Source: Candidatus Kuenenbacteria bacterium
Lineage (GTDB): Bacteria; Patescibacteriota; Patescibacteriia; UBA2196; GWA2-42-15
Length of the DNA: 64,000 nt
Assembly: GCA_012797775.1 (NCBI GenBank)
Contig: JAAZOM010000006.1
Location: forward strand, 12,815 to 76,814
Direction of reading: 5' to 3'
Shown: piece after piece, positions 162 through 63,349 of the stretch
How the letters are laid out: the number at the start of each line of letters is the position of its first letter
How positions within the stretch are numbered: the first letter of the stretch is position 1
The notes under the pieces: model-generated
What the model saw: the letters and a program-made list of their open reading frames with translations, nothing else
The model's database searches: none
Told to the model about the DNA's origin: nothing
Made by a program: the position numbers and the translations under genes

Positions 162-174
162 AATTATATAAAGT

Positions 175-361
175 TTATCCTGAACGGGCCTGACCTCCAG
201 CCTAGAATTATCCTAGAACGAGTGAAGGATCCCAGCTGGGTCAGCCCCAACTGTGATTAGTACAGTTGCTTTGCGGCACGGGATCTTTTCATAGATTCAA
301 GATAAATTAATTGCCCACGGGATCCTTCGTCCCGCAAACTCAATGCGGGGCTCAGGATAAA
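175..361. repeat. Interspersed repeat element, copy A. It has terminal inverted repeats TTATCCTGA...TCAGGATAA and internal cggga-tcc-...-tcccg hairpins centred on GGATCC.
   Basis: Shares a 5' end (TTTATCCYGARCG), a middle block (CGAG.GAAGGATCCCA) and a 3' end (CCCGC-loop-GCGGGGCTCAGGATAAA) with the copies at 34897-34980 and 49617-49740. The terminal 8-mers are exact reverse complements in this copy. Confidence 0.6.
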
Positions 362-373
362 ATAATAAAAATT

Positions 374-1537
374 ATGCTAATAACTGCCCTGACATTTTTT
401 ATCATCCTTGGTCTTCTTGTACTCGTTCATGAATTGGGTCATTTTTTGAGTGCCCGTCTTTTCAGAGTCAAAGCTGATGAGTTTGGTTTTGGTTTGCCCC
501 CAAGAGCTATTGGCTGGGTAAAAAATAATAATAAGTGGCAACGCGTCAAAGCTAGCGACCCGGCTGAAAATTATCAAAACACAGTTTGGTCTCTCAACTG
601 GTTGCCGATTGGTGGCTTTGTCAAAATCAAAGGAGAAGATGGTCAGGGAGAAAATAATCCTAATAGTTTTTCCAGCAAAAAAATCTGGCAAAGATTTATC
701 ATGCTTTTTGCCGGAGTCTTTATGAACTTTGTTTTGGCTTTTTTCCTGCTCTCAATCGGCTTTGCTTCGGGTATTCCTACTATGGTTGATGATGTGCCTG
801 CTGCCAACCTCAATCTAAAAAATGAAAAAATCCAGGTTATCTCTTTGAGTGAAAACTCTCCGGCCGCCAAAGCGGGTGTCACCATTGGCGATGCTATTTA
901 TCTGATAGATGGAGAAGCCGTTGCCACCATTAAAGACCTGCAGGAAAAAGTTAATAACCGCCAAGGTCAACCCACTGATTTTGTCTTTTTGCGTGGTCAG
1001 GAAGAAATCAAAAAAATCATTACTCCAGAAGTTGTACCAGACTCTGGTGGTCGCGCCGTGATTGGTGTTGGTTTGGTCAAAACAGCCACCGTCACTTATC
1101 CTTGGTATGAAGCTATCTGGGAGGGCGCCAAGAACAGCTTTGGTTTGTCGGTCGCTATCGTGAAGGCTTTTGGCCAGATAATTGGGGATATCTTTGCCCA
1201 CGGCAAGGTCGCAGCCGAAGTTTCCGGACCCGTGGGGATTGCTGTTTTGACTGGCCAGGTAGTTAAGCTTGGTTTTATTTATATCCTCCAATTCGCCGCC
1301 ATGTTATCTTTAAATTTGGCCATTGTTAATTTATTACCCATTCCCGGGCTAGATGGTGGCCGCATTTTATTTTTGCTCTTTGAAAAAATTAAAGGCCGAC
1401 CACTCCGCCAGAAATATGTGGAATGGACACATCAGGCCGGCTTTTTCTTTCTGATCGCTCTGATCATCCTTGTTACCTTCCGCGATTTGCGCACTTATGG
1501 TGCTGGCATCCTCAATGCTTTTAAATCATTTTTTTAA
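374..1537 (+). CDS. rseP: RseP-type site-2 protease (M50 zinc metalloprotease with PDZ domain).
   Basis: HELGHF zinc-binding motif sits in the first TM helix. An internal PDZ-like segment and an LNLLPIPGLDGG motif are present. Start moved to the ATG at 374 because the upstream part of the track ORF is covered by the repeat element. Confidence 0.85.
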   Translation: MLITALTFFIILGLLVLVHELGHFLSARLFRVKADEFGFGLPPRAIGWVKNNNKWQRVKASDPAENYQNTVWSLNWLPIGGFVKIKGEDGQGENNPNSFSSKKIWQRFIMLFAGVFMNFVLAFFLLSIGFASGIPTMVDDVPAANLNLKNEKIQVISLSENSPAAKAGVTIGDAIYLIDGEAVATIKDLQEKVNNRQGQPTDFVFLRGQEEIKKIITPEVVPDSGGRAVIGVGLVKTATVTYPWYEAIWEGAKNSFGLSVAIVKAFGQIIGDIFAHGKVAAEVSGPVGIAVLTGQVVKLGFIYILQFAAMLSLNLAIVNLLPIPGLDGGRILFLLFEKIKGRPLRQKYVEWTHQAGFFFLIALIILVTFRDLRTYGAGILNAFKSFF

Positions 1538-17764: not shown

Positions 17765-17930
17765 AAAAAATAGTTAGTTTGTAAAGAGGACCCACTAGGG
17801 TATTTAGTAATTTACTTTAGCATATTTTAATAATAATTCAAAATTTGAGTAAAATAAAAAACCGGACCTATCTTTTTGGTAGACAGAGTCCGGTTGTTTG
17901 GTTCGGGGGTTTTCGCGATGGTTCTAGGCG

Positions 17931-18422
17931 CTAGCGGCGGGGCAAAATATGCCGCAGTACTTTCCCGACGATTTTTTCGTCGGGCAGTACTGGGTTGCCC
18001 CAGTCGCAGTCCCGGCCTAGCCGCTCGATAATGGCCCGGGTTGAGCCGTCGTTCAGGGGGATGAACTCGACGGCCCAGTCCATCTCGATCATCGACCGGC
18101 TGGACGGCCGGAAGCCCCGACCACTTTTGAGAGAGTCCTCGAACTGAGCCCGGAGTCTCAGGCTCCGCTGGTTTGTCGTGTCCGAGACGGACACAAAAAT
18201 ACGAACCAGTCCCTGCTGTCCTTCCCACAGATGGGGGATAGCCGGGCGGGGGGGCAATGTGGTGGGCAGGGTGGTGTCCGGGGCGGGGGTAAGCGGACCA
18301 ACCGTCGTGTTGATGACGGTGGTGTCGGAGTTGTTGCGGGGGGTGTAGAACAGGTAGGCGCGGAGCAAAAAGAATACTCCGGCCAAAACCAATAACGCCC
18401 CGATGATATACATCTTTTTCAT
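17931..18422 (-). CDS. Hypothetical signal-peptide protein (163 aa) sitting inside the GC-rich island.
   Basis: AGGAG ribosome-binding site 8 nt before the ATG. N-terminal signal/TM segment MKKMYIIGALLVLAGVFFLL. A consensus promoter lies upstream at 18478-18506. Coding sequence is about 60 percent GC. Confidence 0.5.
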   Translation of the reverse strand: MKKMYIIGALLVLAGVFFLLRAYLFYTPRNNSDTTVINTTVGPLTPAPDTTLPTTLPPRPAIPHLWEGQQGLVRIFVSVSDTTNQRSLRLRAQFEDSLKSGRGFRPSSRSMIEMDWAVEFIPLNDGSTRAIIERLGRDCDWGNPVLPDEKIVGKVLRHILPRR

Positions 18423-18477
18423 GACACATTTCTCCTTTTTGGTGATTGCAAATAAAATGAACTATTTTTATGTTAAA

Positions 18478-20330: not shown

Positions 20331-21272
20331 ATGGAACACGTAAAGATATTGGCCGTCAATCGCCGGTGGGATCTGCCAGTATTGATCACCAGACAACTGG
20401 GCTTGCCCCTTGTCTGGGTAGAGAAAAAAATTTTTGCCGACGGTGAGTGCTGGGTCAGACTCCCGGAAAGCGTACGCGGCAAAAGGGTATTTATCATTGC
20501 AGAAAATACACCGGCTGAGAAACTCATGGTTTTGTTGGTGATGATTGATGCTTGTCGCCGGGCTTCAGCCGCTGAAATCAATGTGGTTGTTCCCTATTTT
20601 GGCTGGGCGCGCCAAGATCGCATGAAGGGTCGTGATCCGGTCACTGTAAAATTGGTCTGCAATCTCATTGTCCAGGCCGGTGCTGATCGCCTGCTTTCGA
20701 TGCACCTACACTTCCCCCAGCTTACCAGCTTCGTGGACATTCCTTGGGATCATCTGTATTCGGCCTATGCTATCATCGACTGGGCGAGAAAGCAAGGTAA
20801 AAAATTTACTGTAGCTGGTCCTGATTATGGCGCTTCGCCCTTGGCAGACTTCGTCGCCAGAAAACTGGATATGCCCTTGGCAATTTTGAGAAAAAAACGG
20901 CCGGCGCACAATCAGGCAAAAACTAGTGGTATTATGGGCAGTGTTAAAAACTCGGACGTTTTGATGGTCGATGATATTTCAGACACTGTTCGGACCATGA
21001 TTGGTGGCTGTGAATATTTGGGAGAGCTGGGAGCCAGAAATATTTATCTCACCGCCACCCATGGTTTGTTATCAGCTGGCGGGGCCAAAAGGATAGAAGA
21101 GTGCTCTCGTGTTAAAAAAGTATTGATTACCAATACGACGCCCATGACGGCCAGAAAAAAATCACCAAAAATTGAGCGTATATCAGTACATGACATTTTT
21201 GCCAAGGCCATCAATGCTATCATCAGGGAGGAATCGGTCAAAGATCTTTTTGAAAAAGAACTTTTCGCCTAA
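20331..21272 (+). CDS. prs: Ribose-phosphate pyrophosphokinase (PRPP synthetase). Copy 1, GC-rich.
   Basis: FADGECWVRLPESVRGKRVFIIAENTPAEKLMVLLVMIDACRRASAAEINVVVPYFGWARQDR matches the Prs N-terminal and PRPP-binding blocks. A strong ribosome-binding site GGGAGGGAG precedes the ATG. Confidence 0.8.
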   Translation: MEHVKILAVNRRWDLPVLITRQLGLPLVWVEKKIFADGECWVRLPESVRGKRVFIIAENTPAEKLMVLLVMIDACRRASAAEINVVVPYFGWARQDRMKGRDPVTVKLVCNLIVQAGADRLLSMHLHFPQLTSFVDIPWDHLYSAYAIIDWARKQGKKFTVAGPDYGASPLADFVARKLDMPLAILRKKRPAHNQAKTSGIMGSVKNSDVLMVDDISDTVRTMIGGCEYLGELGARNIYLTATHGLLSAGGAKRIEECSRVKKVLITNTTPMTARKKSPKIERISVHDIFAKAINAIIREESVKDLFEKELFA

Positions 21273-33673: not shown

Positions 33674-34420
33674 ATGAGTACGCATATTGGAGCAAAAAAA
33701 GGCCAGATCGCCGACGTAGTCTTATTGCCCGGTGATCCGCTCCGAGCTGCCTGGCTGGCAAAAAAATTCTTAAAGGCCCCAGAGACAGTTCATGATGTCC
33801 GCGGTATGCCCTGCTACACCGGGTTCCGTCATTGTTTCAGGGCCCTCCCCGGTCAACTCGCTTGTACCAAAAAATTGATATCCATCCAGTCCAGCGGCAT
33901 GGGCATGCCATCACTCGGCATTTATGTCGAGGAGCTGGCAAGAGACTTCGGGGTCAAAAAAATTATCCGTCTCGGCACCTGCGGAGCCTTGCAAGAAAAA
34001 ATTAATCTTCGCGATATTATCATCGCGATGGGGGCTTGCTCTGATTCGGCCTCCAATATTCACCGCTTTGGGCCAGCCATGAGTTTCGCTCCTATCGCCG
34101 ATCCGGCTCTTTATCGTGACGCCGTCCTCCAGGCCGAAGACCGGGGATTGCCTTTCCACACTGGCAATGTCTTTGCCACGGATGATTTCTATGATCACAG
34201 TGAGCCGCCGAGGTGGCAAAAGTTTGCTCGATATGGTGCTCTGGCTGTTGAAATGGAAACAGCAAAGCTCTATACCCTGGCCGCCTATTATGGGATACAG
34301 GCGCTGTCGCTACTCGTGGTCAGCGACCACCTGGCTCGCGAGGAAAAGCCCCTGACCTCAGAAGAGCGGGTGACCTGCTGTAGCGACATAGCTATGATCG
34401 CCCTGAGCATTGTTGCCTAG
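33674..34420 (+). CDS. deoD: Purine nucleoside phosphorylase, DeoD type (PNP/UDP family 1).
   Basis: VVLLPGDPLRA, GMGMPS, RLGTCG, GACSDS and EMETAKLY blocks align closely with DeoD. The gene is GC-rich. Confidence 0.8.
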   Translation: MSTHIGAKKGQIADVVLLPGDPLRAAWLAKKFLKAPETVHDVRGMPCYTGFRHCFRALPGQLACTKKLISIQSSGMGMPSLGIYVEELARDFGVKKIIRLGTCGALQEKINLRDIIIAMGACSDSASNIHRFGPAMSFAPIADPALYRDAVLQAEDRGLPFHTGNVFATDDFYDHSEPPRWQKFARYGALAVEMETAKLYTLAAYYGIQALSLLVVSDHLAREEKPLTSEERVTCCSDIAMIALSIVA

Positions 34421-34686: not shown

Positions 34687-34762
34687 TGGTACGCTGTACA
34701 GGATTCGAACCTGTGACCTTCTCCTTAAAAGGGAGCTGCTCTACCAACTGAGCTAACAGCGC
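34687..34762 (-). tRNA. tRNA-Lys (anticodon TTT).
   Basis: Manual fold: GCGCTGT/ACAGCGT acceptor stem, GCTC-AGTTGGTAGAGC D arm, GCTCC-CTTTTAA-GGAGA anticodon arm, ACAGG-TTCGAAT-CCTGT T arm, encoded CCA. Confidence 0.85.
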
Positions 34763-34896
34763 ATATGGCAAAAACTCAAAATTCAAAAATTAAAAGTCAA
34801 AATTAAGGTTAATTTATTTTATTAGGCGAAGTTGGTCCAACTGCCTGCCCCGCACCTTTATGGCTGCGGGGAGCTAACAGCGCATAAGTTTTGTAA

Positions 34897-34980
34897 TTTA
34901 CCCTGAACGTCAGTGAAGGGTCCCATCTCAATTTGATAAAACGCGAGATTTTTCCCCTGCGTCTGTGGGGTAAGGATAAA
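34897..34980. repeat. Interspersed repeat element, copy B (short form).
   Basis: TTTACCCTGAACG...AGTGAAGGGTCCCA...CCCCTGCGTCTGTGGGGTAAGGATAAA. It abuts a 16-bp copy of the tRNA-Lys 5' end. Confidence 0.5.
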
Positions 34981-49603: not shown

Positions 49604-49616
49604 AATTTTTTAGTAA

Positions 49617-49740
49617 TTTATCCCGAGCCCCGATGAATATCGGGACGAGGGATCCCGTTTAGATAGCCACTTACTATAATTAATATAATATTCATTTTAG
49701 CACGGGATCCTTCCCCCGCCCATGGCGGGGTCAGGATAAA
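49617..49740. repeat. Interspersed repeat element, copy C.
   Basis: TTTATCCCGAGCC...GGGACGAGGGATCCCG...GCACGGGATCCTTCCCCCGCCCATGGCGGGGTCAGGATAAA. Confidence 0.55.
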
Positions 49741-49758
49741 TTTGATGGAATTTAAAAA

Positions 49759-49784
49759 GCCACCATTGCGGTGGCTTTCATCTT
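49759..49784 (-). terminator. Intrinsic terminator of rpmB.
   Basis: gccaccgc-aat-ggtggc hairpin followed by a T-run on the minus strand. Confidence 0.65.
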
Positions 49785-49785
49785 T

Positions 49786-49962
49786 TTACTTTGCTTTTTT
49801 CTTCAAAGTCTTCAAACATCTAGTACAGACTTTCTTTTTCACCCCATCAATAATTTTGCTTTGGAGATTTATATATTTGCGTGTCAGGGTTTTATTTTGA
49901 GCGTGGGAACTTTGGACAAATTTTTGCGGACCACGGCCGCACAAATCACAGATTCGAGACAT
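49786..49962 (-). CDS. rpmB: Ribosomal protein L28.
   Basis: 58 aa: [58 protein letters not shown]. The ORF is below the size cutoff of the provided track. Confidence 0.75.
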
Positions 49963-50025: not shown

Positions 50026-50631
50026 ATGGATTTTACACATCTTATTTTTTATTTCCTCATTATTATCCCTTCGGCTATCATCCACGAATATTCTCATGGT
50101 TGGATGGCTGATCGCTTGGGCGACCCAACCGCCAAATATGCTGGCCGCCTGACCCTTGACCCGCGAGCTCACATTGATATTTATGGCACTCTTCTTTTGC
50201 CCCTATTTTTACTCTTGGCCTCTGGCGGCAGTTTTATGTTTGCCTATGCCAAGCCCGTGCCTTACAATCCTTACAATCTAAAAAATAAAAAATGGGGGCC
50301 GGCCTTGGTCGGCTTGGCTGGTCCGCTGTCCAATCTCATTGTCGCTATTTTCTTCGGTGCGCTCTTCAGACTCCTACCAATCAGCACGTTCTCCTCACTG
50401 CTCGGCTTGATCGCTTTTGCCAATATCATTCTATTGGTTTTCAATTTGGTGCCCATTCCTCCCTTAGATGGTTCCAAGGTTTTATTTGCTATCCTGCCAG
50501 ATTCTTGGGGTAATTTTAAAATTGTATTAGAAAGATATGGTATAATTTTTCTTCTAATTTTTGTTTTTTATTTTTCTGGGGTCATCAACCCGATTGTTAA
50601 TTGGATATTCCGACTTGTGGTCGGAGTATAA
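50026..50631 (+). CDS. Site-2 protease family (M50, SpoIVFB-like) membrane metalloprotease.
   Basis: HEYSH zinc motif in the first TM helix. NLVPIPPLDG motif. Confidence 0.7.
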   Translation: MDFTHLIFYFLIIIPSAIIHEYSHGWMADRLGDPTAKYAGRLTLDPRAHIDIYGTLLLPLFLLLASGGSFMFAYAKPVPYNPYNLKNKKWGPALVGLAGPLSNLIVAIFFGALFRLLPISTFSSLLGLIAFANIILLVFNLVPIPPLDGSKVLFAILPDSWGNFKIVLERYGIIFLLIFVFYFSGVINPIVNWIFRLVVGV

Positions 50632-58360: not shown

Positions 58361-61300
58361 ATGCCTAGTCTTTACAAAAACAGGAAACTGTTTGTCGCTA
58401 TTTTTCTATTGTCAGTGGTACTACTTGGTGCCGCTTTTTTAATTCCTGAAAAAAAGCAGGGGATGGTGCTAGGAGAGACTACAGCTGACCCTACCATCTC
58501 TGCTCTCACTATTAGCAATATCACCGCCACATCGGCCAAAATCACCTGGACCACGAGTGACCCGATGACCACCGTTCTTACCTATTATGTTGCTGGCACT
58601 AATAATATAAAAATTGCTTATGGTGCCGGTGCTTCTTTTAGTAATACTCATGAGGTTAATTTGACTGGACTTGCACCAAACACCAGCTACCATCTTTTTG
58701 CCGAATCAGAAGATTCTGACGAGTATTATACCCTGAATGCCTATGGTGATTTTAAAACGTTAACAAGCGCCCCCGCCGCCAGCGATGCTTTGGCCTTTAC
58801 CAAAGAACCGTCCGTCGTCGTTACTAGTTCCTCAGCTACGCTTACTTGGACTACCAACATGGAGGCTACCCACTTGGTAAAATACAAGACCAACTCAGAA
58901 ACCACTTACCGCCAGGCCTATCTTTCTGGTCAGTCCTCTACCCACACTATTTCTATCACCTCCCTCACTCCCAATACCATCTATAATTATATTGTTGAAT
59001 CAGAAGAGCAAGGTGATCGTGGTTTTATTTCCAAGAGTGGGTCATTTACCACCTCAGCTGGTTCGCTCACTCCTACGATCTCCGAGCCCAAAGTTGCCAA
59101 CCTCAGTGCTACCTCAGCCAAGATTTATTGGACCAGCAACGTACCCATGAGTACTGAGATAAGGTATGCCAAGGATGGCACCACCAGCTATACCTATGAT
59201 TCCATCGATTGGGAAGATGAGAGGGAGTGGGGCGTTGATCACGAAATAACGTTAAGCGGTCTCTTACCTGGCACTAAATATAATTTTTACGCCGGTGGCG
59301 AGGATGGTCGCACCTCTATTGAAAAAGTGGGATCCTTCCAGACTTTATCTGCCTCTCCTAGTTTTTCCAGTCTGGTTGTTCAAAGTATCACTACCACCAT
59401 CAGCACGCCAACAGCCAATCAATTGGTCCCACTTACTATTGGTGTAAAAAATAATGATAATATCAATGCTCTTACCAACGTGCCCATCGAGATAAAAGTC
59501 AATGGCTTGGCCATTTGCAGCGGCACTGTTATGCCTCGGATCTCTCCCAGCGCAACTGGTTATGCTGCTTGCAACTGGACTCCGACAGCTAGTGGTTCTC
59601 ATACCATTACCGCTTCTATCTCTGTTGGGGGCTCGGTTATTTCCACAAAGAATGTGACTTTTACCGTGGTTGGTAGTTCTGCTTACGTCACCCTGACCAC
59701 TAGCCCCTCTACTGTGGCCGTAGGCCAGAAAGTCATTTTGACTGGCAAGATTACTGGGGAACACACTTTTCAGATAGCTCAGTTCAAAGAATTATATAAT
59801 GATCCGACCCCAGATAAGGTTATTTGTGATACGACTACCAAAAATAGCACCGGTTTATACACATGCGAGTGGACACCCAAAACAGCCGGCGACTACCAAT
59901 TAGCCTTTAGAGTAAACTATGATGATGCCTTAACTGCTACAGCCAACTACGCCGTAACCGCCGCCAGTGTTACTCCCACCTACGCTTGGGTCGAAGGTGC
60001 GTGGGGATCTTGTAATGCCAATGGCACCCAATCAAGAACTGTTGTCTGTAGAAAAACAGAAGGTACTTCAGTTACCGATGTTGAGGAAAGATATTGTGCC
60101 AATGCCGGTGCCAAACCAGCTACGACTCAGGTCTGCAGTAAATTATCTATTTTAAGTATCACCACCACCAAGACCAGTATTCTCCCCAATGAGGTTATTC
60201 CCCTAAGTATTGCCATTAAGAATAGCGATCAGATAAACCCTTATACTAATATTTTATTGGAATTAAAAAGTGGGTCAGCCGTTATTTGCAACCCAACCAT
60301 TTCAAGGGTCTCTGCCGGCGTCACTGGCTATCAAACTTGCAACTGGACTCCGACAGCTAGTGGTTCTCATACCATTACCGCTTCTATCTCTGTTGGAGGC
60401 TCGGTTATTTCCACAAAGAATGTGAATTTTACCGTGGTTAACTCCACCACTAGTTATGTTACTTTGGGAGTTAGCCCCACCACCGTGGCGGTCGGCCAGA
60501 CTGTTGTTCTAGGCGGTAATATTATTGGCGACCACACCTTCACTATTGCTCAATTCAAAGTCCTAAAAGACGGCAATGATACTATTTTGTGCGAAACCAG
60601 AAATAAATCCAGCAACAATTCTTACGCTTGTAGCTGGACTCCAACAACCGCCGGTACTCATCAGTTAGTTTTTCGGGTTAATTATAGTGATCAATTGACT
60701 GCCACGACGAACTACACTGTGACCGCCGCCAGCGTTACTACCACCTACGCCTGGGCCGAAGGTGCGTGGGGTCCTTGCAATAATGGCACTCAGGTCAGAA
60801 CCGTATCTTGTAAAAAAACAGAAGGCACGACTGTCACCACGGTCATTGATAACTATTGTGTCAATGCCGGTGCCAAACCAAACACGACGCAAGGTTGTAC
60901 TTTGGGCGCGACGGCTGTCACACTTTCTGCCACTCCTACGACCGCGGCCATCGACACAAAAGTCGTCCTGACTGGGACCATAACTGGTACTCATGATTTC
61001 TATTGGGCTGAATTTAAAGATAACAAAAAATATCCGATACCAGATGATGTTCTTTGCAGCGTAAAAGAAAACGATGCTGATATCTATACCTGTGAGTGGA
61101 TACCCAAAACCGCCGGCAGTCACGAACTGGTTTTTAGGGTGAATTCGGATCCTGATCTGACAGCGACTCTTTTCTTTACCGTCACCGGTTCAAACTTAGC
61201 TACTTACTCCTGGTACTCCGGTGCCCCTCTTGGTGCCTGTACCGGAGGTAGTCAGACCGTTACTGTCTACTGCAAAGATTCTAATGGTGCTAGGGCTGAT

Positions 61301-63349
61301 GACTCCAAATGTATTGTTGCCAATGCCGGTGCCAAACCAGCTACGACACAAAGTTGCAGTAATATTACTTTTGCCTGGGGTGAACCTAGCGCCTGGGGTG
61401 TTTGCACTGATGGTAATCAAACAAGAACTGTCGTCTGTAAAAAAATAGAAGGTACGACTGTCACCGACGTTAATGATAGTTTCTGCCCTCCTGCTACCAA
61501 GCCAGTCACATCGCAGTCTTGTATATCTGATGAACCCGACCTTACCTTTACCGCCTTTTCCGTCAGCTTGAACAATGGTGGTGTTAGCGGCACAAAAACC
61601 AGAACTGTAAGATGCCTAGATAGTAATGGCGATGTTATTGCTGATGCTTTGTGTCTTGGCCCTAAGCCAAAAGAAGTAGACAGTTGTCAAAATAATTCTC
61701 TATCCTTTGAGCTATTTGAGTTTTTTATTTATTCTGAAGATGGGGAGGAACTGCTGGTTTTTAGAGGTGTCTTACCTTCTATAATAGATGAAAGGATGGA
61801 CATGTTTTTCTTTATCGATGACCATAAAAGTGAATGGCTGTCGACTATTGATAGGACCCTTTTTTTTGAATCTACTACTGAAGGAGTAAGGTCATTTTTT
61901 GCTGATGGTTTTGATCCATTTACTAATGGTGACCATGTTTTTAAGGTAAGAGTCTGTAGTCAAAACAACCCCACTTTTTGTTTTGAAGAAGAAAGATTTT
62001 ATAATATTGGAGGAGAAAAATCAGGAAACTCTTGGGAAACGTCGTTTTGGCAAACGCAAGCTTGTTCCGCCGGTACTGGCGCTAGCTCTCTGACTTTGGT
62101 TCCAGCTATCCAAAATATTGGCACCGTCGCCGTTTCTACGCCTTTCAATATCAAAGTAGAAGTCAGCATAAATGATGACCCCATCGCCGGCTCCGAGGAA
62201 ACGTTCACAGTTACTGATGGTTTTGCTCCGGGCTTTGGCAATTATTTGACCCACATTTATAATAAATATATTTTTGATGATCCGGGCAACTATGTTATTA
62301 AGCTCACTATGTTAGATGTTGCCGGTGAAACCAATACTGCCAACAACAGCATCACTAGTAATTTGGCCGTTTCTCCTGATAATAATATTGTTATCTCCAA
62401 TTTGCGGGTTTCCGATATCACCAGCACTTCGGCTACTGTCAATTTCAGCACCAACATCGCTACCAAAGGCGCGGTTTGGTATGGTACCACTGATACGATT
62501 CAGGGTCGCAATTTTAGAGCCTATGATGGTGGTAGCCATGAGGCATATCAAACAATTACACCGAGCATGATTCACCAGATTCGACTTGCCAACTTGGCCC
62601 CCGATACCACTTATTATTATCGTGGCGACGCCCTTGTCATCGCCGATCAGGTCGCGGAAACCGCTTCATATAGTTTCAAAACAAAGGCATTGGAGACTTA
62701 TTCTTGGGTTAATGTCGGTTGGTCAGATTGTGTTGATGGAAAACAAGAGTTAATGGTTGAGTGCCGCAATCAATCTGGTTCCAAAGTATCTGACAGCCAG
62801 TGCACTGGCACAAAGCCATCTGACAGTCGCGATTGTGAAATTTCTGATAATGCGACAGGCGAACGGCTCGCCGGCCGCTTACTTCTAGCGGCTGAAGACC
62901 ATGGTCGCGTCTATTATATTTACCCGGAAGATTATAAAAAATATGAAGTAACCTTTGGTAATGTCATGAAACTTTTTCAGGATTTATCTTTGGGTATTAG
63001 TAATAGTGATCTAAACAAAATTCTCATCAACCCCAATGCCGTGAGTGTGGACAAAGACAGTGACGGTGATGGCTATAATGACAAATCAGAAGTGACCAAT
63101 GGCTACAATCCATATCTAGCTTCTGACCCAGCCCATCGTGGCAATGACAAGGTTCAAGTTGATACTGTCTTGAGCAACCGTTTAATCGGCAGGTTATTGC
63201 TCCAAGTCGAGGATCGTGGTCGTATCTGGTATGTGGATCAAGAGGCCAAACGTTGGGAAGTCACCTGGGAAAATGTCATGAATTTATTCACATCTCTTTC
63301 ATTAGGTACTAATAATGATGATCTAGCAAGGATACAAAGTGGCAACTAA
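58361..63349 (+). CDS. Giant secreted repeat protein (1662 aa). It combines Fn3-like domains, repeated Ig-like plus thrombospondin-type-1-like Cys modules, and a C-terminal tandem repeat.
   Basis: N-terminal signal/TM segment. Three Fn3-like units (ITATSAKITWTT...LTGLAPNTSY). Five W..W..C...Q.R.V.C...C...KP...Q.C modules (for example AWVEGAWGSCNANGTQSRTVVCRK...YCANAGAKPATTQVC). An internal roughly 88-bp DNA repeat at 59570-59657 and 60338-60425 is almost identical. Two C-terminal RLxGRLLLxxEDxGR modules. Confidence 0.8.
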   Translation: MPSLYKNRKLFVAIFLLSVVLLGAAFLIPEKKQGMVLGETTADPTISALTISNITATSAKITWTTSDPMTTVLTYYVAGTNNIKIAYGAGASFSNTHEVNLTGLAPNTSYHLFAESEDSDEYYTLNAYGDFKTLTSAPAASDALAFTKEPSVVVTSSSATLTWTTNMEATHLVKYKTNSETTYRQAYLSGQSSTHTISITSLTPNTIYNYIVESEEQGDRGFISKSGSFTTSAGSLTPTISEPKVANLSATSAKIYWTSNVPMSTEIRYAKDGTTSYTYDSIDWEDEREWGVDHEITLSGLLPGTKYNFYAGGEDGRTSIEKVGSFQTLSASPSFSSLVVQSITTTISTPTANQLVPLTIGVKNNDNINALTNVPIEIKVNGLAICSGTVMPRISPSATGYAACNWTPTASGSHTITASISVGGSVISTKNVTFTVVGSSAYVTLTTSPSTVAVGQKVILTGKITGEHTFQIAQFKELYNDPTPDKVICDTTTKNSTGLYTCEWTPKTAGDYQLAFRVNYDDALTATANYAVTAASVTPTYAWVEGAWGSCNANGTQSRTVVCRKTEGTSVTDVEERYCANAGAKPATTQVCSKLSILSITTTKTSILPNEVIPLSIAIKNSDQINPYTNILLELKSGSAVICNPTISRVSAGVTGYQTCNWTPTASGSHTITASISVGGSVISTKNVNFTVVNSTTSYVTLGVSPTTVAVGQTVVLGGNIIGDHTFTIAQFKVLKDGNDTILCETRNKSSNNSYACSWTPTTAGTHQLVFRVNYSDQLTATTNYTVTAASVTTTYAWAEGAWGPCNNGTQVRTVSCKKTEGTTVTTVIDNYCVNAGAKPNTTQGCTLGATAVTLSATPTTAAIDTKVVLTGTITGTHDFYWAEFKDNKKYPIPDDVLCSVKENDADIYTCEWIPKTAGSHELVFRVNSDPDLTATLFFTVTGSNLATYSWYSGAPLGACTGGSQTVTVYCKDSNGARADDSKCIVANAGAKPATTQSCSNITFAWGEPSAWGVCTDGNQTRTVVCKKIEGTTVTDVNDSFCPPATKPVTSQSCISDEPDLTFTAFSVSLNNGGVSGTKTRTVRCLDSNGDVIADALCLGPKPKEVDSCQNNSLSFELFEFFIYSEDGEELLVFRGVLPSIIDERMDMFFFIDDHKSEWLSTIDRTLFFESTTEGVRSFFADGFDPFTNGDHVFKVRVCSQNNPTFCFEEERFYNIGGEKSGNSWETSFWQTQACSAGTGASSLTLVPAIQNIGTVAVSTPFNIKVEVSINDDPIAGSEETFTVTDGFAPGFGNYLTHIYNKYIFDDPGNYVIKLTMLDVAGETNTANNSITSNLAVSPDNNIVISNLRVSDITSTSATVNFSTNIATKGAVWYGTTDTIQGRNFRAYDGGSHEAYQTITPSMIHQIRLANLAPDTTYYYRGDALVIADQVAETASYSFKTKALETYSWVNVGWSDCVDGKQELMVECRNQSGSKVSDSQCTGTKPSDSRDCEISDNATGERLAGRLLLAAEDHGRVYYIYPEDYKKYEVTFGNVMKLFQDLSLGISNSDLNKILINPNAVSVDKDSDGDGYNDKSEVTNGYNPYLASDPAHRGNDKVQVDTVLSNRLIGRLLLQVEDRGRIWYVDQEAKRWEVTWENVMNLFTSLSLGTNNDDLARIQSGN

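Follow-up and report, generated by a model that had tools for sequence, protein, structure and literature searches.

The repeats closest to those described here are the NTS of Neisseria (CGTCATTCCCGCGMAVGCGGGAATCYRG) and the 'Ssn-related motifs' (SRM), which in many phyla lie on either side of ssnA (Chenal et al., 2025, PMC11893778). The product of ssnA is a 94-amino-acid single-domain GIY-YIG protein (cd10448), which binds the hairpin of the repeat only as single-stranded DNA, recognizes one strand only and cuts a few nucleotides 5′ of the hairpin (PMC11893778). [quoted passage not shown] The SsnA/NTS system lowers transformation by NTS-bearing DNA, dRS3 constitutes the palindromic core of NTS, and the repeat–ssnA–repeat layout has been likened to insertion sequences and to REP–RAYT systems (PMC11893778). 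The survey of Ssn proteins was based on reference genomes, and its text mentions neither Patescibacteria nor start codons (PMC11893778). The first description of Ssn nucleases and of the hairpin repeats that accompany them dates from 2025.

In this study, a stretch of 64,000 nucleotides (the window; 42% G+C, part of a 91-kb metagenome contig) was analyzed, in which a reading of the sequence alone had proposed a novel family of interspersed elements, either miniature inverted-repeat elements or small structured RNAs with a closing stem. With a probability of about 0.7, the three loci are instead a Patescibacteria branch of the NTS/SRM hairpin repeats that accompany Ssn-family GIY-YIG single-stranded DNA endonucleases, a branch that would be non-autonomous and REPIN-like. 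The novelty claimed for this kind of element was accordingly not upheld, as the copies appear to fall in the NTS/SRM class linked to Ssn GIY-YIG nucleases (PMC11893778).

Copies in the window

Direct reading of the sequence confirmed three copies, each of them intergenic: A at 174–361, B at 34897–34980 and C at 49617–49740. All of the copies have the common termini, namely the left end TTTAYCCYGARC and the right end (G)GGG(N)TMAGGATAAA, and the GAAGGRTCCC/GGGATCCTTC blocks and 3′ GC hairpins were likewise verified. The terminal motifs are only weakly enriched in the window (5′ motif, 6 versus 2.6 expected; 3′ motif, 4 versus 0.6 expected), and BLAST comparison of A, B and C with one another returned short words only. 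Rfam at the gathering threshold gave only tRNAs in the window and no family match to the copies, and around copies A and C nothing credible was found at E values up to 10.

A covariance model of the arm (R1) was built from 49 training sequences, 46 from outside the window and three that are window modules. Run with filters off on the window and the 10 kb upstream of it, R1 matched the window modules at E = 4e-10 to 1e-3, and nothing else convincing was found in the 64 kb beyond the modules of A, B and C (Table 1). Three of the matches (316–363, 49701–49742 and 49615–49659) are the model's own training sequences and were matched by construction; the independent detections are those at 277–308, 172–236 and 34895–34927.

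Table 1. Positions in the window of the hairpin modules and of the gene directly downstream of copy A.
Feature	Position	Strand	Basis or remark
Copy A, composite of three hairpin modules	174–361		Between frr and rseP; sequence and R1 matches
A left module	172–236	−	R1 28.0 bits, E = 6e-4
A inner decayed module, CACGGGATCTTT...AAGATAAATT	277–308	+	R1 28.9 bits
A right module, CACGGGATCCTTCG-TCCCGC..GCGGGG-CTCAGGATAAA	316–363	+	R1 56.3 bits, E = 6e-10 (training sequence)
Copy B left module	34895–34927	−	R1 26.6 bits, E = 1e-3
Copy B decayed right module, GCGAGATTTTTC-CCCTGC..GTGGGG-TAAGGATAAA	34940–34982 (about)	+	Read from sequence; below R1 threshold
Copy C left module	49615–49659	−	R1 51.6 bits (training sequence)
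Copy C spacer, 41 nt, AT-rich, common ~40-nt class	49660–49700		Spacer classification
Copy C right module, CACGGGATCCTTC-CCCCGCC..GGCGGGG-TCAGGATAAA	49701–49742	+	R1 57.0 bits, E = 4e-10 (training sequence)
rseP (M50 peptidase), directly downstream of copy A	374–1537	+	Served to fetch orthologous loci

On the plus strand the left module of copy A reads TTTATCCTGA...GAAGGATCCCAGC, which is the orientation corresponding to NTS, and its apical part carries a 34-nt insertion. The inner module, at a distance of 40 nt from the left module, has the basal stem ATCTT/AAGAT, compensated within the arm, and 12 nt separate the end of the right module from the rseP ATG. In copy B, the basal stem of the left module is ACCCT/AGGGT, again with compensation inside the arm. 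The left module of copy C has the basal stem ATCCC/GGGAT and ends 13 nt before the ATG (49603) of a divergent radical-SAM gene, and the spacer of this copy holds a promoter-like TAGATA-18-TATAAT facing the right module, which is a consensus match only and not above chance.

Several other features of the window were recorded. The first 15–16 nt of a tRNA-Lys gene on the minus strand (ATGCGCTGTTAGCTC) are duplicated 120 nt upstream (34750–34765 and 34870–34885), and the duplicate is followed by a GC hairpin, CCCCGCAGCCATAAAGGTGCGGGG (34846–34869), immediately beside copy B; the partial duplicate may have been left by an insertion or a rearrangement at this tRNA gene. A terminator-like hairpin, GCCACCATTGCGGTGGC (49756–49790), is located 16 nt past copy C and has T runs on each strand; no annotated gene ends there, and the next gene starts at 50026. 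An open reading frame of 1662 amino acids (58361–63349) with thrombospondin type 1, fibronectin III, filamin, CARDB and purple-acid-phosphatase N-terminal repeats probably encodes a large surface protein.

Repeat unit

The unit of repetition is a single directional hairpin of about 40 nt (a module) and not the whole element of 85–190 nt. On the NTS-like strand a module consists of 5′-TTT, ATCCT, GA, a variable GC stem-loop, GA, AGGAT, C and CCGTG-3′; in the gene-facing orientation this becomes CACGGG-ATCCT-TC-[variable stem-loop]-TC-AGGAT-AAA. Alignment of 49 distinct modules in 52 columns showed GGGATC, the TC/TC internal loop and AAA to be invariant, in a hairpin whose basal stem measures 5 bp and whose apical stem, beyond a 2 × 2 loop, reaches at most 7 bp. 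Paired cells amounted to 83% of this alignment, compared with 69% in shuffles and 29–44% in slid controls, and double-change cells numbered 87 compared with 32; these conservation and pairing figures are partly ascertainment-biased, the modules having been retrieved with a fixed 3′-arm pattern and then with a structure-aware model.

Since pairing of the basal stem was itself a criterion of retrieval, independent evidence comes from the left arms. These were retrieved by aligning sequences with the reverse-complemented right arm, and no pairing was required of them. In left arms whose outer pentamer departs from ATCCT, the inner pentamer is altered to match, giving the stems ATCTC/GAGAT, ATCTT/AAGAT, ATCCC/GGGAT, ACCCT/AGGGT (copy B), GCCCT/AGGGC and ATTCT/AGAAT. 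Over 18 doublets, the intra-arm basal stems are Watson–Crick in 180 of 180 cells, whereas the helices that could form between arms lose one or two pairs each in the ten doublets with differing arms. Each arm is thus an independent hairpin and, because compensation is intra-arm and inter-arm pairing is lost where the arms differ, the closing stem and the long GGATCC-centred hairpin are by-products of two hairpins standing back to back. The small RNA with a closing stem that had been proposed, a four-way junction, was not borne out by this comparison and was dropped.

The two strands of a module differ in the mismatches that folding would involve. The internal loop of the mRNA-sense strand is UC/UC, with mostly pyrimidine–pyrimidine mismatches, and that of the NTS-like strand is an invariant tandem G-A loop with purine–purine mismatches; wobble-compatible positions number 15 on the NTS-like strand versus eight on the mRNA-sense strand. 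The tandem G-A loop and the larger number of wobble-compatible positions mildly favour the NTS-like DNA strand as the one that folds.

Distribution and arrangement of modules

A search pattern derived from the right halves of A and C (ACGGGATCCTTC, 12–40 nt, YMAGGATAAA) matched ten stretches in a scan of one genome per species, three of them true (in one Patescibacteria MAG and on two contigs of one Kuenenbacteria MAG). Applied to metagenome contigs, it matched 51 stretches, most of them true, and copies occur in about 40 metagenome contigs. A looser 3′-arm pattern had given only chance matches inside genes on viral contigs, and the pattern was tightened before the large scans. The family is widespread across Patescibacteria. 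Its description as an interspersed repeat family, non-autonomous in the window, was sustained, with more copies in other genomes and variable presence at an orthologous site. Literature searches yielded nothing relevant for the exact module sequence or for MITE in combination with Patescibacteria.

Many of the retrieved copies are complete two-armed elements of 83–190 nt, and as many have the right arm only; single arms make up 37 of 75 modules. Neighbouring modules face outwards in 18 pairs, inwards in none and lie in tandem in two. The spacers of the doublets cluster at 12–15 nt (six cases) and at 39–41 nt (11 cases), with copy C and the left pair of A falling into the 40-nt class. Copies A, B and C are outward-facing inverted pairs of modules, to which A adds a third module. 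With their outward orientation and clustered spacers, the doublets seem to propagate as whole units in the manner of REPINs. No flanking direct repeats or target-site duplications were seen by eye at the borders of about 20 inspected copies.

Syntenic frr–rseP spacers of relatives were fetched via RseP orthologues. An element clearly homologous to copy A is present in the spacer of L076 (RseP 80% identical), where it likewise ends 12 nt before the rseP ATG. The spacers of L074 (RseP 82% identical), L068 (78%), L070 (73%) and L072 (60%) are without the element, and R1 found no module in 65 kb of L068, L070, L071 and L072, which cover three of these element-less relatives. The element is not conserved at the orthologous frr–rseP site; the spacers of these relatives (RseP identity of 60–82%) do not align, and no exact empty site can be defined. 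Spacers of related Patescibacteria also hold AT-rich periodic low-complexity repeats (acaagatacaagat..., aaatcccaaatc..., ttttcaattttcaa...), sometimes as inverted blocks (L072 9875–10000, L074 600–750, L070 2937–3100 and several Ga0066639 loci).

GIY-YIG genes bracketed by the hairpins

In another genome (L033), the frr–rseP spacer is composed of a left arm, an open reading frame of 103 amino acids, a right arm and 14 nt leading to the rseP ATG. The product of this reading frame is a GIY-YIG domain protein (Pfam PF01541, E = 1.7e-14), and its homologues are single-domain proteins of about 93–103 amino acids with a C-terminal NPxWxDL. Hairpins of the same or related build stand beside the genes of these homologues at five further loci. 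An arm stands 23 nt ahead of the ATG at L079, L083 has perfect 26-bp inverted hairpins on both sides of the gene (GTCATTGCGAGCGCAGCGAAGCAATC and its complement), L084 has the hairpin GTCATTCTGAGCGCAGCGAAGAATC before the gene and GGATCCTTCACTTCGTTCAGGATGACA after it, and at L085 the gene and a hairpin overlap at the 3′ end of the former. At L087 the canonical NTS-like GACATCCCCGCGAAGGCGGGGATCCAG flanks a gene whose product is 55% identical to the L033 protein. Repeats flanking a small single-domain GIY-YIG gene are thus found in L033, L079, L083, L084, L085 and L087. At L084, tandem half-sites also occur beside the full hairpins (1380–1450 and 1800–1910; TTTGTCATTCTT upstream and TTCAGGATGACATTT downstream). 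The GIY-YIG gene of L080 is flanked by a 45-bp repeat with a module-like hairpin (2333–2380 and 2780–2825), which is direct and not inverted, includes the region of the stop codon of the gene and gives a layout unlike that of the other loci.

The assignment of these proteins to the Ssn clade (cd10448) rests on their size, their single-domain build, the homology to the NTS-flanked protein and their context, from which they are predicted members. In the PDB, no relative closer than UPF0213 was found at E = 0.01. All-against-all clustering of the open reading frames neighbouring the modules gave GIY-YIG as the sole recurrent non-housekeeping neighbour, at three loci; GIY-YIG genes are present in three pattern-retrieved loci and adjoin a module in only two of the three. 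The small GIY-YIG protein of L042/L043 was rejected as unrelated to the family, its gene lying beside a tRNA gene with no modules adjoining. In L043 (3790–4260, equal to L042 1–480), this more distant reading frame directly follows the tRNA gene and is itself followed by a partial repeat of the 3′ part of the tRNA, like an insertion into or beside a tRNA gene.

Searches with tblastn and a family HMM found no GIY-YIG gene of this family in the loci of the close relatives or in the window and the 10 kb upstream of it, which make up 74 kb of the 91-kb contig. A cognate Ssn enzyme in the genome of the window is therefore putative.

Comparison with the published motif

The modules are imperfect palindromes of 20–50 nt that are able to form hairpins. 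They are directional and retain the cytosine after the palindrome, AGGAT being followed by C in 49 of 49 modules (the invariant G6 in the other orientation). The triplet 5′ of the palindrome, which is GTC in NTS (HGTC in the SRM pattern), is TTT in 49 of 49 modules (AAA in the other orientation); its position is conserved, and its identity differs from NTS. The published SRM pattern, HGTCWYN(0-2)YYVSBRHN(0-5)WNVSBRGN(0-2)RNCYNB, finds canonical NTS and none of the modules. The hairpins beside the GIY-YIG homologues likewise escape it, and its one match in the window, inside a gene, is due to chance. Because the directional hairpin, the C, an invariant 5′ triplet and the position beside a homologous gene are shared and yet the published pattern matches none of the modules, they are classified here as a variant of the NTS/SRM class and not as pattern-defined members of it.

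Position relative to start codons

The AAA end of the gene-facing orientation lies close to start codons: 27 of 75 modules end 4–21 nt before the ATG of a long open reading frame on the same strand, compared with two of 75 at the other end (background 6.5%, p about 7e-14). For single modules only, the corresponding numbers are 15 and one of 37. The downstream genes, recognizable from their N-termini, are unrelated (rpsT, rplT, atpF, rnhA, alaS, trmD, rsmH and rseP), and the spacers between module and ATG are AT-rich and without a Shine–Dalgarno sequence. Promoter and terminator consensus scans around copies A and C gave results not above chance.

In about 40 upstream regions of the window, most genes have no Shine–Dalgarno sequence, and their leaders are AT-rich and often carry a TATAAT-like box 2–25 nt from the ATG, which suggests leaderless mRNAs or mRNAs with very short leaders; strong GGAGG-type sites precede few genes (17827–18429, 20331–21272 and 33674–34420).

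The adjacency to start codons has not been reported for the NTS/SRM class and is the part of the observations that is unexplained by current knowledge. It could point instead to a role at the level of RNA or of promoters. Given their fixed position just upstream of start codons, the modules are probably also transcribed into 5′ leaders, and a role in leaders could coexist with an explanation at the level of DNA.

Discussion

By analogy with SsnA and NTS in Neisseria, one strand of each module would fold when the DNA becomes single-stranded during replication, uptake of transforming DNA or repair. A cognate Ssn would then bind the folded module and nick a few nucleotides 5′ of the hairpin. Pairs without a reading frame, and single modules, may have been spread or left behind by way of the arm–ssn–arm cassette, as REP and REPIN sequences are by way of RAYT, and the modules may have a role in transformation or in gene expression.

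The strongest rival is a structured RNA, whether a small RNA closed by a terminal stem as a four-way junction or a generic 5′-leader hairpin that stabilizes the downstream mRNA or tunes its translation, and it is unlikely. The folding of copies A and C is far better than that of shuffles (z = −4.7 and −5.5), and the compensatory changes in the stems and the excess of modules shortly before same-strand start codons, with AT-rich spacers devoid of Shine–Dalgarno sequences, also speak for RNA. However, both strands fold equally well, Rfam gave no match even at E = 10 and the compensation within arms shows that a four-way junction is not the conserved structure. Furthermore, the element is absent from the frr–rseP spacer of four close relatives, the genes downstream of the modules are unrelated, the tandem G-A loop is on the strand opposite to the pyrimidine-rich UC/UC loop of the mRNA sense, and the link to a GIY-YIG nuclease gene is left unexplained.

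A promoter-proximal DNA site, that is an operator or a 'mobile promoter' with elements supplied by the ~40-nt spacer or by the GGATAAAnT tail, is less probable still. It would suit the short fixed distance of modules from start codons, the AT-rich sequence upstream of singles, where TGTAAAT/TATAAA boxes recur some 9 nt ahead of the module, and the outward-facing match in the spacer of copy C. The promoter-like matches are nevertheless not above chance, doublet spacers of 12–15 nt leave no room for a promoter, and the variable apical stems keep their complementarity while their sequence changes, which fits a folded single strand and not a duplex site.

The miniature inverted-repeat element of the sequence-only reading fared worse and is very improbable. 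As an internally deleted derivative of a DDE transposon, it would be mobilized by a transposase that recognizes the terminal inverted repeats TTTATCCTGA/TCAGGATAAA, and the 10-bp inverted-repeat termini, the size of 85–190 nt and the interspersed occurrence, present or absent among relatives, agree with this. However, the inspected borders showed no duplications, singles are as common as pairs, and the supposed terminal repeats track changes in the inner half of the arm to which they belong and not changes at the other end. In addition, the sole reading frame found between matching ends encodes a GIY-YIG nuclease and not a transposase, and only GIY-YIG and housekeeping genes recur among the neighbouring reading frames. 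Mobilization of REP/REPIN-type repeats by a RAYT (a Y1 HUH transposase of the IS200/IS605 superfamily), which hairpin singlets and inverted doublets with two fixed spacer classes, intergenic location and the lack of target duplications would allow, is equally improbable, as the only hairpin-bracketed gene found is that of a GIY-YIG nuclease and clustering gave no other recurrent family.

Within the preferred assignment to Ssn-associated repeats, it is conceivable, although doubtful, that the modules have acquired a second life at gene starts in Patescibacteria. The spreading machinery might target single-stranded DNA exposed at the promoters of genes with short leaders, or a module with the ~40-nt spacer of a doublet might have been co-opted as a portable promoter-and-leader cassette. 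Either option would explain why modules end 4–21 nt before housekeeping start codons in a single fixed orientation.

If the assignment is correct, it adds to the NTS/SRM class a branch invisible to the published search pattern, whose hallmarks are REPIN-like doublets, an internal loop of tandem GA and, where cleavage is determined in Neisseria, the triplet TTT. The very strong bias towards start codons provides a handle on how such repeats spread and on their possible influence on gene expression. Patescibacteria are regarded as dependent on DNA uptake, the process modulated by SsnA in Neisseria. Repeats of this class can also be expected to yield spurious small open reading frames and protein extensions in annotation; the called protein of one homologue (P0132) begins ahead of the GIY-YIG domain and runs through the NTS-like repeats beside it.

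Comparison with known systems

Like mobile promoters and MITEs, the modules are homologous short sequences upstream of unrelated genes; unlike these, they came with no transposase and no target duplications, and a promoter function is putative. Correia elements (NEMIS) carry promoters, are cleaved as RNA hairpins and have TA target duplications and 26-bp inverted repeats. The modules resemble these and the dRS3 elements of Neisseria as short palindromic intergenic repeats that end up (in the case of the modules, probably) in transcripts, but they show no sequence similarity to Correia elements.

REP sequences usually lie 3′ of genes, in contrast to the placement of the modules 5′ of genes. The likeness to REP/REPIN–RAYT systems lies in hairpin singlets and inverted doublets that behave as units, without target duplications, and in repeats flanking the gene of the enzyme thought to move them, a parallel that has been drawn for ssnA (PMC11893778). 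The associated enzymes differ, being a GIY-YIG nuclease for the modules and a Y1 HUH transposase in the case of RAYT.

The modules differ from NTS in the triplet TTT in place of GTC, in the ATCCT/AGGAT stem, in the invariant tandem GA loop and in the nested variable stem-loop. They further differ from NTS/SRM in their outward-facing doublets with quantized spacers and in ending 4–21 nt before start codons, and from the published cases in their Patescibacteria hosts and in the lack of an ssn gene in the 74 kb searched. In common with NTS/SRM, they are directional hairpin repeats of 20–50 nt in multiple intergenic copies, in which both the C that directly follows the palindrome and the triplet that precedes it are conserved, and with a small single-domain GIY-YIG gene bracketed by hairpins (repeat–ssn–repeat); the outward-facing doublets have the same layout as arm–ssn–arm.
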